From assembly GCA_963718895.1 (NCBI GenBank), contig CAVRAG010000004.1, positions 256,001-320,000 of the forward strand: 64,000 nucleotides of DNA. The letters are read 5' to 3'. A model generated the notes under the pieces. The model was given only the letters and a program-made list of their open reading frames with translations. It was not told the origin of the DNA and did not search any database. Position numbers and translations under genes: made by a program. The stretch is from an uncultured Nitrososphaerota archaeon. Its GTDB lineage: Archaea > Thermoproteota > Nitrososphaeria > Nitrososphaerales > Gagatemarchaeaceae. This document shows positions 1 to 51,951 of the stretch, one piece after another. Each line of letters starts with the position of its first letter. Position 1 is the first letter of the stretch.

Positions 1-1287
1 AGCGAACCCCTACCAGAATCCAAGTCCAGCCTAGTTATCTGCAGAAAATGCAGGACAAGGTACGCCACGGTCAAACGCCACGTCAGGGTGTTGACCGCGT
101 ACGAGCACGAGTTCGAGAGGAACTACCGGGACCTCGCGGGCAGGGATTCTACGTCCGATGTCACGAGGCTGGAAGAGGAGAGACAAGGTTCCACTTCTAG
201 AATCCTGGAACGCATCTACTATGATGAGCACCGTCCAGCGTCCGACGACAAAGACGAGCGCAGGACGCTGACGATCTATCCCGGGGACAGGATGCTGGTA
301 AAGGAAGGTAAGCTCTACATCTTCAAGAGACGGAATGTCGAGGCTGTCCCACTGACAGGCACGACGCTCGTCGACAACGGCGTGATAGGTGAGGAACAGC
401 TCAAGGCGCTCGAAGATGCGGGGGCGACCGTCCGGAAGGCAACAAGCTCCAATGCACCTCCCATGGAAGCGAAAGAACCAAGGTTTGACATCAGTCCACT
501 CGTAGAAAGGGCCGTCCTCGAGCGCCCCGAACTCGCCCGCGGATTCGCCTTGGCCATGGCCAAGAGCGCAATCGACGCCACCGAGAGAATAGCCGCCCTC
601 CCGCAGACGCAGGAGGCGGAGGCCATACCTTTGAAGAGGGAAGAGCTCCGGCTTTTCGGGCGTCTGGAGAGATCCGGCCCGAACGGGTTCCTGACCTTCG
701 AGGCGCGGATCATGATTCAATACTGGAAGTGCTTCAACCTGCCGCTCCGACGCGTCTTCGAAAGGTTCGGGCCCCGCAAGCGCTCACGTTTCGTGAGAGA
801 GAGCGTGACGGCTGCGTCGGGCAGGGCCAGGGGGTACTCCGCGGTGGACGCGGCGATAAACTACCTGCACCAGAGGCGGCTCTTCAAGTGCAGACAGGTC
901 AACATCCAGCTGGGGCTCGAATACAACCCGGGGGAGGGCTTTTTGCACAGGAGGAGGTGGAACTCGGATGGCCTAGGCCTGCTTCTCGACCTCATCGACC
1001 CCTTCAAGTTCGCTGACAGGGAGAAGCTCCTGAGCGCGATACTGGATTCAAGAGTCAACTGGAGGGACTTCTACAGCTCGACGGACAGGCACGGAGTCCG
1101 GTTCTACTATCCGAAACCGGAGGCGATAGGCACGCTCGAGGGCGTGGGCGAGGAAGCAGACAAGAGCATGGTGGAGTACAAAGGCGTCAAGCTCCCGCTT
1201 ATGGAAGCTTACCGGACCACGGTCTCCGATCTGATTGAGAACCTTCAGAAGGACGGGAAACCGTCTTTCACACCTTTCGCATACTGA
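1..1287 (+). CDS. cas1: Cas1-like integrase/nuclease (stand-alone), 5'-truncated by window edge, N-terminal extension with CxxC
   Basis: Frame open from base 1 (SEPLPESKSSLVICRKC...). Cas1 motifs in order: TLTIYPGDRMLVKEGKLYI, FEARIMIQYW, DAAINYLH, GLEYNPGEGFLH, LLLDLIDPFK, C-terminal TPFAY; E/H/D triad appears intact. Confidence 0.8.
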   Translation, partial: SEPLPESKSSLVICRKCRTRYATVKRHVRVLTAYEHEFERNYRDLAGRDSTSDVTRLEEERQGSTSRILERIYYDEHRPASDDKDERRTLTIYPGDRMLVKEGKLYIFKRRNVEAVPLTGTTLVDNGVIGEEQLKALEDAGATVRKATSSNAPPMEAKEPRFDISPLVERAVLERPELARGFALAMAKSAIDATERIAALPQTQEAEAIPLKREELRLFGRLERSGPNGFLTFEARIMIQYWKCFNLPLRRVFERFGPRKRSRFVRESVTAASGRARGYSAVDAAINYLHQRRLFKCRQVNIQLGLEYNPGEGFLHRRRWNSDGLGLLLDLIDPFKFADREKLLSAILDSRVNWRDFYSSTDRHGVRFYYPKPEAIGTLEGVGEEADKSMVEYKGVKLPLMEAYRTTVSDLIENLQKDGKPSFTPFAY

Positions 1288-1696
1288 GCAGACAGCCCTT
1301 CGCCCAAACGGCCTCGAGTTTAGGGTCTGTCACCGTCCTCCAGAAATCGAAATGCTTCAGCGTCTCCTCTCTCGTCATGAACTGCACCGGCCTCGTCACG
1401 CTAACCATCTTTTCGTGGAACAGCTCATGCACAGGAATGGGCCGGGCGAGGGCATGGTTCACTTCGACGCCGACGCCAGAGGTGATCCTGTTCAGGAGCC
1501 TGCTGAAGACCAGCCCGTCGCAGCAGTCTATCAGTCCAAACCAGTACGCCATCCCATCCTTCTTACCCTGATCGTTCTGAAGAGTTCCTGGATTCACTAT
1601 CTCGCAACCGGGCAAGTGGGTAGCTATCGCAAGCATCTCGGCTTTCTCGAGCGCGGTCCCGTAGAGGCACATGGCATGGGCGTAGTAGACCCGCAC
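1268..1696 (-). CDS. Nucleoside 2-deoxyribosyltransferase-like (NDT fold) protein
   Basis: MRVYYAH, EIVNP, IDCCDGLV, TSGVGVEVNHALA motifs. Confidence 0.6.
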   Translation of the reverse strand: MRVYYAHAMCLYGTALEKAEMLAIATHLPGCEIVNPGTLQNDQGKKDGMAYWFGLIDCCDGLVFSRLLNRITSGVGVEVNHALARPIPVHELFHEKMVSVTRPVQFMTREETLKHFDFWRTVTDPKLEAVWAKGCLLSMRKV

Positions 1697-1864
1697 ACAT
1701 CATCCTAGTACAAAGAAACTCGGGCCTATAATCGCCATGGTGCATCTGCGAATGCGACCAGAAGGTGCACCAAACAATCAAAGTATATTTAACCAACCAG
1801 ATTTGGTCGTGGCCACCCGAGGTTAGAGAAAATCAAAGGACGCAATTACCGCGAAGTTAAGTCA

Positions 1865-2347
1865 ATGGCTTACACCAGCAAGTACTACGCACCCGGCGCA
1901 CCCAACTCCAAGGTCGCCAGGTTCACCACAGGAAAGGCGAACCCCGACTACAACTACTGCATCAACCTGGTCTCCAGGGGAAGGGTCCAGATCAGGCACA
2001 ACGCCCTCGAGGCGGCCCGTGTGGCTGCGAACAAGAAATTGGTCAGCCTTGGAGAAGAGGGGTACCTTCTCACCGTGAAGACATACCCTCATATAATTTT
2101 GAGAGAGAACAAGATGATCGCCACCGCAGGCGCAGACAGGCTCCAGGAGGGTATGAGGAAGGCCTTCGGCAAGCCGATAGGTCTGGCCGCCCGCGTGGAC
2201 ATAGGCAGCACGATACTCGAGCTCCAGGTCAAGACGGCCGACCTCCAGCTGGGCAAGAACGCGCTCCACGCGGCGAAGGCGAAGCTGGGCGTGCTCACGG
2301 ACGTCGTAGCCGTAGAGATCCCGAAGGCCCCCACGCCCGCTGCCTAG
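1865..2347 (+). CDS. rpl10e: 50S ribosomal protein L10e/uL16
   Basis: [43 protein letters not shown] signatures. Confidence 0.97.
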   Translation: MAYTSKYYAPGAPNSKVARFTTGKANPDYNYCINLVSRGRVQIRHNALEAARVAANKKLVSLGEEGYLLTVKTYPHIILRENKMIATAGADRLQEGMRKAFGKPIGLAARVDIGSTILELQVKTADLQLGKNALHAAKAKLGVLTDVVAVEIPKAPTPAA

Positions 2348-2415
2348 CCGCTGACCAGTCGGCATAGTCAAGGCGTTAATCGACAGAGGATTTCAAGCAG
2401 GTAGATGCTGCGCAC

Positions 2416-2534
2416 AGGATTCATCACTCATCCGGGGACTCATCCAGGTACGTCGGTTGTGATAGGATGTCAAGGCGGGAATTCCAGTTGCTCTCCGGGC
2501 TTTTACGTGCGAACCGCGTCGGACCCCGAGGCCC
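2416..2534 (+). repeat. A-C repeat block (diverged copy just downstream of rpl10e)
   Basis: aggattcatc...atccaggtacgtc...ctctccgggcttttacgtgcgaaccgcgtcggaccccgaggccc. Confidence 0.85.
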
Positions 2535-50348: not shown

Positions 50349-50370
50349 GTGATTAATAGTTATGTCCGAA
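50349..50370 (-). promoter_or_regulatory. Motif B
   Basis: ttcggacataactattaatcac. Confidence 0.75.
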
Positions 50371-50499
50371 AGCCGAACGAGGACCAGTCGCATCACGCTG
50401 TCAAATTCGTCATATCTGTTATCCGGAGATAACCTCCTGACCCGTGTGACTCTCCGTCTCAGAATATTGAAATGGGTTGTCTAAGGAAGGCCCTTCCTG

Positions 50500-51402
50500 A
50501 TGAATCGGGACGCGCTCCCCTTGGTCGTCAAGATCAGAAAGGCGAAGCCTTCTGATAAGGGCCCTCTCCTGGATTTCATCAAGGACGTGTGGGGAGGTCA
50601 CGACTACATCCCGGGAGTGTGGGACGAGTGGCTCGCGGACACCAGAGCGAAGATGTTCGTGATCGAGGTCGACGGAACGCAGGTCGGGATGGACAGGATG
50701 CGCTTCCTTCCCGACGGGTCGGGTTGGCTCGAGGGAGTGAGGATTCATCCGGACTACAGAGGACGGGGGCTCGCCTCCATGCTCGGAATCCACTCGATGA
50801 AGGCGGGTGCGAGGAACGGCGTCGCCGTATACCGACTGGCCACGTATAGCCGGAACAAATCCGCACGTAGACAGATATCAAAGATGGGTTTCGGGGAGAT
50901 AGCTAGGGCCAACTTCTATGAGCCTGAACCCGGCGCTAGGTTTCCGAGACAGAAGGGCGTGTGGATGGCGGAGAAGAGAGAGCTCCCAGAGATCTTGGAA
51001 ATGGTGAGCGGGTCGAAAGAGTACAAGCTCGGAGCAGGCGTCTATTGGGACGTCTCCGCGGCAGTGAGGCTCGCGCCGAACGTCCTGGCAGACTTGATCG
51101 GAGACGGATCGGTCTTCCGAACCGATGGCGCCGTCGCGGTCGCAAGAATTGGTGCTCAGGGCGGGGAGTTGTGGAATCAGATCTGCTTCTTGACTGGCAG
51201 ACCTGAGGCTGCGGCGAGGCTTGTGAAACACCTGCTGGCGAAGAAGGATGAGGTCAAGATGAGCTGGACTGTCGCGTACCTGCCACGGGGTTCGCCCCTC
51301 GCCGGGACGCTCAAGGAAATTGGCATGAAGAGAACCCAGTCTCTCCTGCTGTTCGAGGGTATGGCACCGGACCCGGTAGGGAAGCGGAAACAGAGGGACT
51401 GA
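50500..51402 (+). CDS. GNAT-family acetyltransferase
   Basis: WLEGVRIHPDYRGRGLA. Confidence 0.85.
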   Translation: MNRDALPLVVKIRKAKPSDKGPLLDFIKDVWGGHDYIPGVWDEWLADTRAKMFVIEVDGTQVGMDRMRFLPDGSGWLEGVRIHPDYRGRGLASMLGIHSMKAGARNGVAVYRLATYSRNKSARRQISKMGFGEIARANFYEPEPGARFPRQKGVWMAEKRELPEILEMVSGSKEYKLGAGVYWDVSAAVRLAPNVLADLIGDGSVFRTDGAVAVARIGAQGGELWNQICFLTGRPEAAARLVKHLLAKKDEVKMSWTVAYLPRGSPLAGTLKEIGMKRTQSLLLFEGMAPDPVGKRKQRD

Positions 51403-51427
51403 CCAGCAAGACCATATCCACCCTCGG

Positions 51428-51868
51428 ATGATGTTGCGTGGGCGACAGAGAATGGTCAAGGCCGTTCGCATAATGAATTCGGTCGTAATGTTCCTGTATC
51501 GCGCTTCCGGTGGGAGAGTCGCGGCCAGGATGCAGAAGGCACCAATCATGCTCCTCACGACCATGGGCTCCAAGAGCGGTAAGCCCAGGACGAACCCAGT
51601 CCTCTACGTCGTCGACGGCGATGACCTAGCGACCGTCGCCTCGGCGGGAGGCGCCGAGAAGGACCCCTCCTGGTTCGTGAACCTGATGCACACTCCTCAG
51701 GCCACTGTCACGATAAAGCGCGAGACGAGGAAGGTGCGCGGAAGAAGGGCCACCCCCGAGGAGCGTGCGAGGCTGTGGCCGCGCCTCGCGGCCGTTTACA
51801 CTACCTACAACGACTACGCCAAGAAGACCAAGCGGGAGATCCCGGTGGTCATACTCTCCCCCGCTTGA
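51428..51868 (+). CDS. Ddn-like F420-dependent nitroreductase/quinone reductase
   Basis: LLTTMGSKSGKPR, ASAGG..DPSWFVNL, YAKKTKREIPVV. Confidence 0.88.
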   Translation: MMLRGRQRMVKAVRIMNSVVMFLYRASGGRVAARMQKAPIMLLTTMGSKSGKPRTNPVLYVVDGDDLATVASAGGAEKDPSWFVNLMHTPQATVTIKRETRKVRGRRATPEERARLWPRLAAVYTTYNDYAKKTKREIPVVILSPA

Positions 51869-51951
51869 AGGTGTCCAGCGCTTTCGGTCTCGTAGGCATA
51901 CGAGAACCCTAATTAAGGGACGGTCGAGCGCAAGTTCAGGTTAAGCGGCAA

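Follow-up and report, generated by a model that had tools for sequence, protein, structure and literature searches.

The window analysed here is a 64,000-nucleotide (nt) stretch from an uncultured Nitrososphaerota archaeon (G000:C4:256001-320000, in a 3.13-Mb assembly of 11 contigs, 80.5% complete), and it runs from the end of a gene for an 896-amino-acid (aa) Cas1-like protein, hereafter Cas1L, through the ribosomal protein gene rpl10e to the diphthamide-synthesis gene dph2 and beyond. Between rpl10e and dph2 lie 49.6 kb of gene cassettes punctuated by 13 copies of a 47-nt repeat, AB, all on the + strand. The anatomy of this array is real and unusual: integron-like in behaviour, it lacks the features by which integrons are defined. 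We read the 49.6 kb tentatively, with a confidence that stops a little short of an even call, as a chromosomal gene-cassette array, a hot spot of integration and recombination, recombined site-specifically by a recombinase that acts in trans; the genome has at least one further array of this kind. A preliminary description of the window had reported a Cas1-like open reading frame (ORF) ~580 bp upstream of rpl10e, ~49 kb of repeat-separated modules after rpl10e and four displaced rpl10e fragments; the gap measures 578 bp, the protein has the fold and the E/H/D/D pattern of Cas1, and all four fragments were located (6386-6443, 12674-12866, 43359-43389 and 44959-45006). The features are listed below in order along the window; motif C, R2, D8, D9 and D10 are further repeat families, L199 is a metagenome contig, and G424 and G425 are related genomes.

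1-1287 (+, open at the window edge): C-terminal 428 aa of Cas1L; the whole gene is C4:254597-257287
1268-1696 (-): Z142, 142 aa, adjoining the 3' end of Cas1L; weak nucleoside 2-deoxyribosyltransferase-like PHROG match
1865-2347 (+): intact rpl10e, ribosomal protein L10e/L16 (PF00252, E 3e-23)
2404-2536 (+): first long unit, made of an R2/D10-like element, a promoter-like segment and AB (2490-2536; core GTGCGAAC at 2507-2514)
2676-5227 and 5532-6179: cassette 1, an ABC transporter and a winged helix-turn-helix (wHTH) regulator, closed by the copy at 6386-6621
6386-6621 (+): copy of 2304-2536 at 82% identity, with the last 15 rpl10e codons, spacer and AB
7465-7693 (+): 'empty' 184-nt module, AB 7465-7511 and AB 7647-7693 around D9, R2/D10 and D8
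10246-10340 (+): motif C (10246-10270) then AB (10294-10340), a composite unit kept in L199 and G424 with other flanks
12634-12866 (+): rpl10e fragment (corresponding to 2105-2295, 90% identity) after an R2-like element; the junction recurs at 43324-43389, at 44927-45006 and in G425
16100-16225 (+): long unit of R2/D10, D8 and AB, 93% identical to 7568-7691
17150-17279 (+): AB (17150-17196) then D9
22275-22462 (+): motif C (22275-22299), AB (22321-22367), D9 and R2/D10
22498-22927: HicA/HicB cassette, following the unit at 22275-22462
22988-23126 (+): long unit closing with AB (23080-23126)
23766-23812 (+): hybrid site of motif C, core TTCCGAAC (23783-23790) and B half; L199 homology halts after the core
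28025-28185 (+): long unit closing with AB (28139-28185); a more diverged copy lies at 28742-28875
31441-38514 (+): five-gene cluster for an Mrp/Mbh-type complex-I-like membrane oxidoreductase, the largest cassette content, in one 9.9-kb module
38698-38744 (+): AB
41811-41857 (+): second hybrid site of motif C, core GTCCGAAC (from 41828) and B half
43324-43389 (+): R2-like element and short rpl10e fragment
44927-45045 (+): R2-like element, rpl10e fragment (corresponding to 2099-2147) and the last AB (44999-45045)
50439-51868 (+): dph2-proximal cassette, with a GNAT acetyltransferase (50500-51402) and an F420H2-dependent quinone reductase (51452-51868)
51952-52989 (+): dph2, the conserved right flank, from which relatives are syntenic again

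Relatives were compared within the family (97 genomes of nine genera) and in a class-wide sample of 401 genomes. In G431, G428, G430 and G432, no more than ~25 nt separate the rpl10e stop from the start of dph2, and because the two genes adjoin directly in these genomes we regard the 49.6 kb of the window as an insertion. Other relatives carry ~130 nt (G426), ~1.7 kb (G429), 7.7 kb (G424) or 9-10 kb (G425, a single contig, 95% complete) in the same interval. The AB repeat (A-GTGCGAAC-B) has variable left ends and a fixed right end (~2533-2537), at which homology with G425 and G424 past rpl10e also stops; seven copies reach leftwards as a long unit of ~130 nt, and one extends over 230 nt to include the end of rpl10e. 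Searched as a 22-nt pattern with up to three mismatches, AB gave 12 matches in the genome, all at this locus, and none as a reversed control. Copies lie 184-9869 nt apart, outside the pattern of CRISPR arrays, in which near-identical repeats of ~25-50 nt alternate with spacers of ~25-70 nt.

The motif family put forward in the preliminary description is thus locus-specific as far as AB is concerned, but motif C is not: this element (TGATTAATAGTTWTGTCCGAAC) has 12 copies in the window and 36 genome-wide, where they are clustered. Thirty-four of the 36 precede a well-scoring opposite-strand ORF by 130 nt or less, most commonly by 31-38 nt, which suggests a promoter-like element. The last eight bases of motif C are the AB core, and at two hybrid sites the order is motif C, core, B half. 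Among the remaining families (D9, D8 and D10), D10 is a copy of R2 (GGGTTCATTGCGCCTCCGCCGG), whose 22-nt core, allowing two mismatches, occurs in 76 of the 97 family genomes, spread over nine genera and often in arrays (reversed control, 0), with up to 53 copies per genome (51 in G426, 43 in G428, 37 each in G413 and G434, 32 in G425). A second array, at C8:1,484,867-1,538,758 (54 kb), consists of 29 same-strand R2 copies 0.6-6 kb apart (consensus approximately GCCATGTATAGGGTTCATTGCGCCTCCGCCGGGGCATTTCATC), several of them preceded by motif C at 79-134 nt, and two more R2 copies lie at 1.56 Mb. A reading of D10/R2 as ribosome-binding site plus start codon was discarded: the ORFs that begin there are 29-136 aa long and conserved over at most ~15 codons. 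An Rfam scan of the repeat units returned no match. A 15-mer scan of genome contigs gave nothing beyond chance matches in bacteria.

Cassettes contain one to few genes and reach ~10 kb. Against the 8 toxin-antitoxin (TA) pairs counted earlier, seven modules have Pfam support, six of them PIN (6708, 9260, 16322, 43427, 44191 and 45276) and one HicA/HicB (22498/22715), and two more small gene pairs are without a Pfam match. The cargo also includes wHTH regulators, an ABC transporter, an amine oxidase, a CPBP protease and many family-less proteins. The Mrp/Mbh cluster stands out by its G+C content (62-64.5%, compared with ~55-59% in the adjoining array and 53-61% in the rest of the window), which suggests a foreign origin. 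Three of the rpl10e fragments, and one in G425, start at the same codon (~79) and are preceded by the same R2-like arm. A foreign origin of the present rpl10e 3' end was considered and rejected, its C-terminal tail matching that of G426.

Arrays of this kind turn over among close relatives, as expected of the integron-like cassette platform that the preliminary description had envisaged. AB occurs in G423 (34 copies on 7 contigs; 85% complete), G424 (5), G425 (2), G434 (1) and 17 metagenome contigs; a single 3-mismatch match in G469 is doubtful. The most informative comparison is with the near relative L199 (rpl10e 94% identical), whose ~9-kb array starts from rpl10e with AB and three foreign cassettes, followed side by side by a PIN cassette, the 23135/23392 gene pair and the GNAT/F420H2-reductase cassette, at 84-99% aa identity to their counterparts in the window (PIN 92-99%, the 23135/23392 pair 87-97%). 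Shared cassettes thus follow another order in L199. The PIN cassette retains both flanking AB sites in L199. The cassette at 23135-23790 begins directly after an AB site, and its homology with L199 ends exactly with the ...CCGAAC of the core (GTSCGAAC), at 23790. The unit of motif C plus AB likewise has different flanks on either side in L199 and G424. Only the dph2-proximal cassette is common to the window, G424 and L199 (83-85% nucleotide identity), and it is the sole part that the 7.7-kb array of G424, which has decayed by deletion inside cassettes, has in common with the window; it is the oldest part of the array that is shared, and either newer material lies nearer rpl10e or the relatives have lost it. 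The same organisation is found in more compact form in G423:C10, where 20 AB units in 13 kb stand between one- and two-gene cassettes, many of them TA pairs. Within that contig (24,200-37,400; L187/L188), AB-like core doublets 111-119 nt apart separate cassettes of ~0.6-2 kb with PIN, HicAB-like and aspartyl-protease-like cargo, and in each doublet the second core is followed by a hairpin with a 7-bp stem, GGGCCTC...GAGGCCC.

Upstream of rpl10e, Cas1L yielded little to sequence searches: Pfam, PF01867 included, gave zero matches, and a profile of the family retrieved no Cas1 from PDB sequences, so that a fold search was needed. The cas1 model TIGR00287 matched at E 2e-4 with 20.6 bits, below its curated cut-off of 71.7; PADLOC Cas1 matched at E 4.7e-6 across residues 649-828; and precomputed PF01867 matches are present on some family members. 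An AlphaFold model built with 37 relatives (mean predicted local distance difference test, pLDDT, 80) was compared with the PDB by Foldseek, and all 34 of the 34 matches listed are Cas1, Cas1 complexes or casposase, with E from 2.8e-9 (4n06_B, the best; others include 8d3p_B and 6opm_C) to 2.4e-5 and target-normalised template-modelling (TM) scores of 0.24-0.60, most of them 0.47-0.60, over ~350-370 aligned columns in most cases. The model contains the complete two-domain Cas1 fold, an N-terminal beta-sandwich and a C-terminal alpha-helical catalytic domain, at residues ~550-896. E702, H784 and D798 are invariant among 37 family members and D801 is present in at least 90% of them, all four inside the stretch aligned to Cas1 hidden Markov models; they were mapped by the motif pattern GFLH...DLxDPF rather than by superposition, the catalytic set of Escherichia coli Cas1 being E141, H208, D218 and D221 (PMC4046053). 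Judging from the model, we take Cas1L to be a genuine Cas1 homologue, and predict a Cas1-family integrase of new architecture that is probably active. Its N-terminal ~540 aa comprise an alpha/beta domain, helical and winged-helix-like parts, invariant Cys pairs and Zn-ribbon motifs; this part matched nothing in Pfam, PADLOC or PHROG, and its first 380 aa found no usable match in the ESM Atlas.

As reported earlier, Cas1L stands apart from CRISPR: a k-mer scan of the 80.5%-complete assembly detected no CRISPR-like array, PF01867 no canonical Cas1 in the genome, and the scanned neighbours of Cas1L include no cas gene with which it could form an adaptation module. The placement in a Cas1 tree called for in the preliminary description was made in a quick version that took 8 of 24 Cas1L sequences (every third, with L223 left out) and a ~410-aa group only presumed to be casposases. 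Cas1L forms its own clade there, on a very long branch, but the position of that clade, joined to two short Cas1-homologue groups of the class (Shimodaira-Hasegawa-like approximate likelihood-ratio support 87, flagged for long branches), is weak and may be an artefact.

Cas1L is known so far from one family of soil and peat Nitrososphaerales only, occurring in 2 of the 401 class-sampled genomes and 20 of the 97 family genomes, often in several copies plus broken pieces. Among 5.8 billion clusters the family numbers 76 entries in the full-length range (~800-930 aa) and 89 shorter ones, mostly contig-end fragments; the source names of the closest relatives are Nitrososphaerales or Thaumarchaeota. 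At every locus examined it is divergently paired with Y143 (~143 aa), a protein modelled (pLDDT 91) with a PD-(D/E)xK, restriction-endonuclease-like fold and with H36, D49 and E60 invariant in 16 sequences. Foldseek likened Y143 to the Can2 nuclease domain (E 4.8e-4, query-normalised TM 0.52), AF1548, Hef/Mus81 and Vsr, with Cas4 SSO0001 at rank 41. A predicted complex of the Cas1 domain with Y143 scored 0.00, without controls, and counts neither way.

A Cas1L copy or fragment lies within 12.2 kb of rpl10e in 15 of 18 genomes (G413 and G419 left out); in the others it is 148 kb off (G299) or on a separate contig (G424, G449). Within an otherwise syntenic rpl10e block it occupies at least five positions in differing orientations: upstream of X194-rpl10e, at F16/F19, at F19/F24, upstream of F9 and at F53/F63. 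X194 is conserved as the gene next to rpl10e on its upstream side; the PHROG that it matches carries the annotation HNH endonuclease, and three R2 copies lie between X194 and rpl10e in G428. Z142 also neighbours Cas1L in G416, G424 and G426; in the present genome the block X171-X194-Y143-Cas1L-Z142 has the opposite orientation to that in G416, and the two Cas1L copies of G431 have nothing in common beyond the two genes themselves. A casposon just upstream had been named as a possible explanation of the gene; no terminal inverted repeats stood out around the Cas1L/Y143 pair at three loci, and Pfam recognised no polymerase domain in the 10 upstream ORFs, although no search was aimed at PolB. An 833-aa neighbour of Cas1L was uninformative in Pfam, PADLOC and PHROG. 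Fragments of the Cas1L 3' end, tried as att sites or inverted repeats, were rejected as such; they are deletion remnants, because relatives hold the whole pair at the same places (G426/G427, G470/G450, G403/G438). Cas1L is an old, often deleted resident near rpl10e. A 34-codon fragment, 74% identical to Cas1L residues 847-880, lies at C4:242195-242296 (-), 13.7 kb upstream of the window, in a 12.7-kb stretch non-syntenic with G425. At G403:C4:64092-65630 (L060/L061; genome 87% complete) the sole rpl10e match of the genome, without its first ~60 codons, abuts a 264-aa Cas1L C-terminal piece; either a redundant copy has suffered a deletion or the assembly is at fault.

A recombinase was sought at several levels. 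As the preliminary description had stated, none was recognised in the window: Pfam, applied to 53 of the 89 ORFs of a crude gene call (the other 36 mostly <110 aa), returned no recombinase there. A six-frame search with PF00589 gave four matches in the genome, none in the window or near the C8 array, and the serine recombinase family PF00239 gave zero. Tyrosine recombinases of one ~450-aa family occur in 19 of the 23 genomes of the genus, with eight matches in this genome, including detached C-terminal fragments; such fragments would be expected if the integrase gene is split when its element integrates. Members in G000 are found at C8:1190965-1192236, C8:627717-628982, C7:481979-483136, C11:6574-7395 and C4:98718-99890. 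Across all arrays the only adjoining recombinase found belongs to this family; it is in G423:C25, where 2.3 kb separate it from an AB site. The family is absent from the AB-positive G425 at E 1e-10 or better, and that genome has one PF00589 match, 92 kb from rpl10e.

If the array is indeed worked by a site-specific recombinase acting in trans, recombination within the 8-nt core G(T/G)(G/C)CGAAC would bring cassettes in, remove them and change their order. This core is common to the array site (A-core-B) and to a putative cassette-borne site (motif C-core), and recombination at the core would leave the C-core-B hybrids. Homologous recombination between repeats, together with deletions, would then remodel the array, and larger blocks may have entered via the conserved middle of rpl10e, displacing old 3' halves. 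Many cassettes come with a promoter-like motif C of their own. Several observations weigh against this reading. The lone recombinase in G423:C25 leaves all other arrays without one beside them. Only the one L199 junction is resolved to the base, and on its other side L199 and the window differ over 20-66 nt before homology resumes, so that the comparison falls short of demonstrating reciprocal products. Similarity is only 52-88% among the twelve AB copies that are in register (a thirteenth was taken out of register), and adjoining copies (61%) resemble one another about as much as distant ones (59%). The left-hand extensions of the repeat, which reach 230 bp and take in the rpl10e 3' end, would be equally compatible with homologous integration of the Campbell type. 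DNA folding of four units on the + strand and two on the - strand gave z from -0.38 to +2.60, none better than shuffled sequence, and R2 has no consensus structure. Four public read runs, assembled as low-depth short contigs over 1801-21800, contained no excision or circular junctions; the three read joints found there have sides of 20-38 nt at repeat motifs, with loose ends at 16188 and 16222 that correspond to the AB copy at 38.7 kb. These reads are unusable as evidence on excision, and absence from them proves nothing. Metagenome runs from soil and peat contain this DNA at low depth.

That no dedicated recombinase is at work, and that promoter or regulatory repeats spread with genes while homologous recombination and unequal crossing-over, among the repeats and with DNA of relatives, did the rest, is in our view quite unlikely. 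The promoter-like, genome-wide motif C agrees with it, as do the parts of the long unit that by reading of the sequence resemble motif C, the variable left and fixed right ends, and the repeats of 47-230 bp at 70-93% identity, which suffice for homologous exchange. It would leave unexplained, however, the sharp break at an 8-nt core common to unrelated left arms (A and C), the confinement of all copies to a single strand and the near-identity of the 22-nt R2 core across genera that share only 60-70% identity in their rpl10e proteins; constancy of the core over such divergence indicates a sequence-specific reader. A rather unlikely origin is tandem accretion of integrative elements at rpl10e/AB by the ~450-aa tyrosine integrases, whose genes were later deleted so that att-flanked remnants stayed behind. 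The displaced 3' parts of rpl10e, with one element-side arm in four copies (one of them in G425), look like an attR signature; Thaumarchaeota are described as having tandem arrays at re-used sites and integration at the 3' ends of protein genes (Krupovic 2019, PMC6563490); the integrase family, fragments included, is well represented in this genome and borders an AB/C region in G423:C25; and the deletions within G424 cassettes show decay. Yet the 49.6 kb hold neither an integrase nor a fragment of one, modules descend to 184-970 bp and form regular one- and two-gene series in G423:C10 that do not resemble decayed elements, and G425 has AB and R2 arrays without this integrase family.

The preliminary description had cast Cas1L itself as the integrase of the array, and in a fuller form Cas1L with its PD-(D/E)xK partner would insert gene-sized DNA at the repeats, working in cis at rpl10e but in trans at other sites, in a manner resembling CRISPR adaptation or casposition; we consider this unlikely. 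In its favour are the full Cas1 fold with conserved E/H/D/D, a constant nuclease partner of a fold class that includes Cas4, the proximity of Cas1L to rpl10e at varied positions and orientations, the want of another recombinase beside arrays, and the whole direct repeats that flank each cassette, as expected from target duplication. R2 copies are also more numerous in Cas1L-positive than in Cas1L-negative genomes (medians 21 and 4 within the genus, 5 and 1 in other genera), but R2 number tracks assembly size (rho 0.69) and tyrosine-integrase matches (rho 0.44), and among assemblies of at least 2.0 Mb the difference is not significant (10 versus 4 genomes, p 0.26); confounded in this way, the correlation was set aside as evidence. 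Arrays and gene also part company. The case that the preliminary description had named as refuting the link, a relative with the array but without this gene, occurs in G425, which has 2 AB copies with an AB site following rpl10e, 32 R2 copies, a 9-10-kb insert and an rpl10e fragment and in which neither a protein nor a profile query found Cas1L; none was found either in G423 (34 AB), G432 (19 R2) or G429 (15 R2). Conversely, Cas1L lies beside rpl10e without any rpl10e-dph2 insert in G431, G428, G430 and G427, the 7.7-kb array of G424 persists where Cas1L has been deleted at the rpl10e locus, the second, 54-kb array is on another contig far from Cas1L, and Cas1L occupies 20 family genomes where R2 occupies 76. 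The similarity of distant AB copies and the missing terminal inverted repeats point the same way. CRISPR arrays are commonly orphan. Most archaeal integrons are reported to be integrase-less (Ghaly 2022, PMC9668308), so arrays without Cas1L are not decisive; comparative evidence nevertheless argues on balance against a strict dependence of the arrays on Cas1L, while action of Cas1L in trans, or its loss after array formation, may still be compatible with the data. A bolder version, in which the Cas1L fusion and its partner form the adaptation-like engine of a new archaeal system of gene capture, which integrates whole promoter-bearing gene cassettes instead of 30-nt spacers at R2 and at AB as a derivative of R2, we regard as a long shot. 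If true, the Cas1L system would functionally link casposons or CRISPR adaptation with integrons, and arrays in Cas1L-less genomes would be orphans, like orphan CRISPR arrays.

Set beside known systems, the array is closest to integrons, in particular to sedentary chromosomal integrons and to attC clusters without an integrase (CALINs), in having short cassettes on the same strand, each ending in a conserved repeat, a richness in TA modules, contents and order that vary between close relatives, and mostly no integrase nearby. It differs from them in that the repeats, with no fold of their own and no conserved structure, are not attC-like; the R'' and R' motifs that characterise attC were not seen in them by eye (no model was applied). 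No IntI-type gene lies beside the arrays, many cassettes have their own promoter-like motif, some reach 10 kb, and the array is anchored in the intergenic spacer after a ribosomal protein gene. CALINs have also been described in Archaea (Ghaly et al. 2022, PMC9668308). With casposons (PMC4046053; thaumarchaeal family 1, PMC6563490), as these sources portray them, Cas1L shares the setting of a CRISPR-free Cas1 homologue near a translation gene in Thaumarchaeota/Nitrososphaeria, a homing-endonuclease-like gene (here X194) nearby and multiple copies and fragments per genome, but it lacks terminal inverted repeats, no PolB was recognised among its scanned neighbours (with no search aimed at PolB), and it is a protein of 896 aa with a large N-terminal fusion and a long-branch clade of its own. 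Cas1-solo group 1 of Methanomicrobiales (PMC4046053) is similarly stand-alone, unlinked to CRISPR and largely vertical in one archaeal lineage; it is reported there without the full catalytic set, whereas Cas1L keeps E702, H784 and D798 and nearly always D801, and the two differ in taxon and domain architecture. The tandem element arrays of Thaumarchaeota (PMC6563490) share with our locus the partial duplicates of a target gene that mark insertions and the targeting of protein-gene 3' ends, but the modules here are integrase-free, far smaller and served by a dedicated repeat family. The main text of that paper does not mention 'L10e' or 'ribosomal protein' as a target, its supplementary table being outside this comparison.

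The Cas1L fusion family and the non-attC cassette arrays appear to be undescribed in the literature searched, which contained no account of the fusion, the AB/R2 repeats or rpl10e as a target, although supplementary tables could list targets. With no CRISPR link and no casposon-like character, Cas1L would broaden the contexts known for Cas1 integrases. The conserved 22-nt R2 core implies sequence-specific recombination or recognition machinery in archaea. If Cas1L and the arrays are connected, this would be a case of gene capture by Cas1; otherwise the two bear separately on how the accessory genome is built in soil Thaumarchaeota of the non-ammonia-oxidiser type.

Further genes and elements of the window deserve brief mention. 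The dph2 gene of this subclade is preceded, ~60 nt before its start, by a separate AT-rich CTAATTAAGG element (51869-51951 in the window), whereas in the G431 clade it abuts the rpl10e stop; an independent dph2 promoter may be why insertions here are tolerated. The proteins encoded at 7708-8898 (-), 58511-59530 (+) and C4:228732-230111 are paralogues without a match in Pfam, PADLOC or PHROG, and the family recurs in the arrays of G424, L199, L198 and G423 at 28-42% identity. Beyond dph2, a 572-aa protein at 59903-61621 (+) carries a LAGLIDADG endonuclease domain at residues 240-304; it has homologues in G425 (76%) and G426 and may be an intein-containing host protein.

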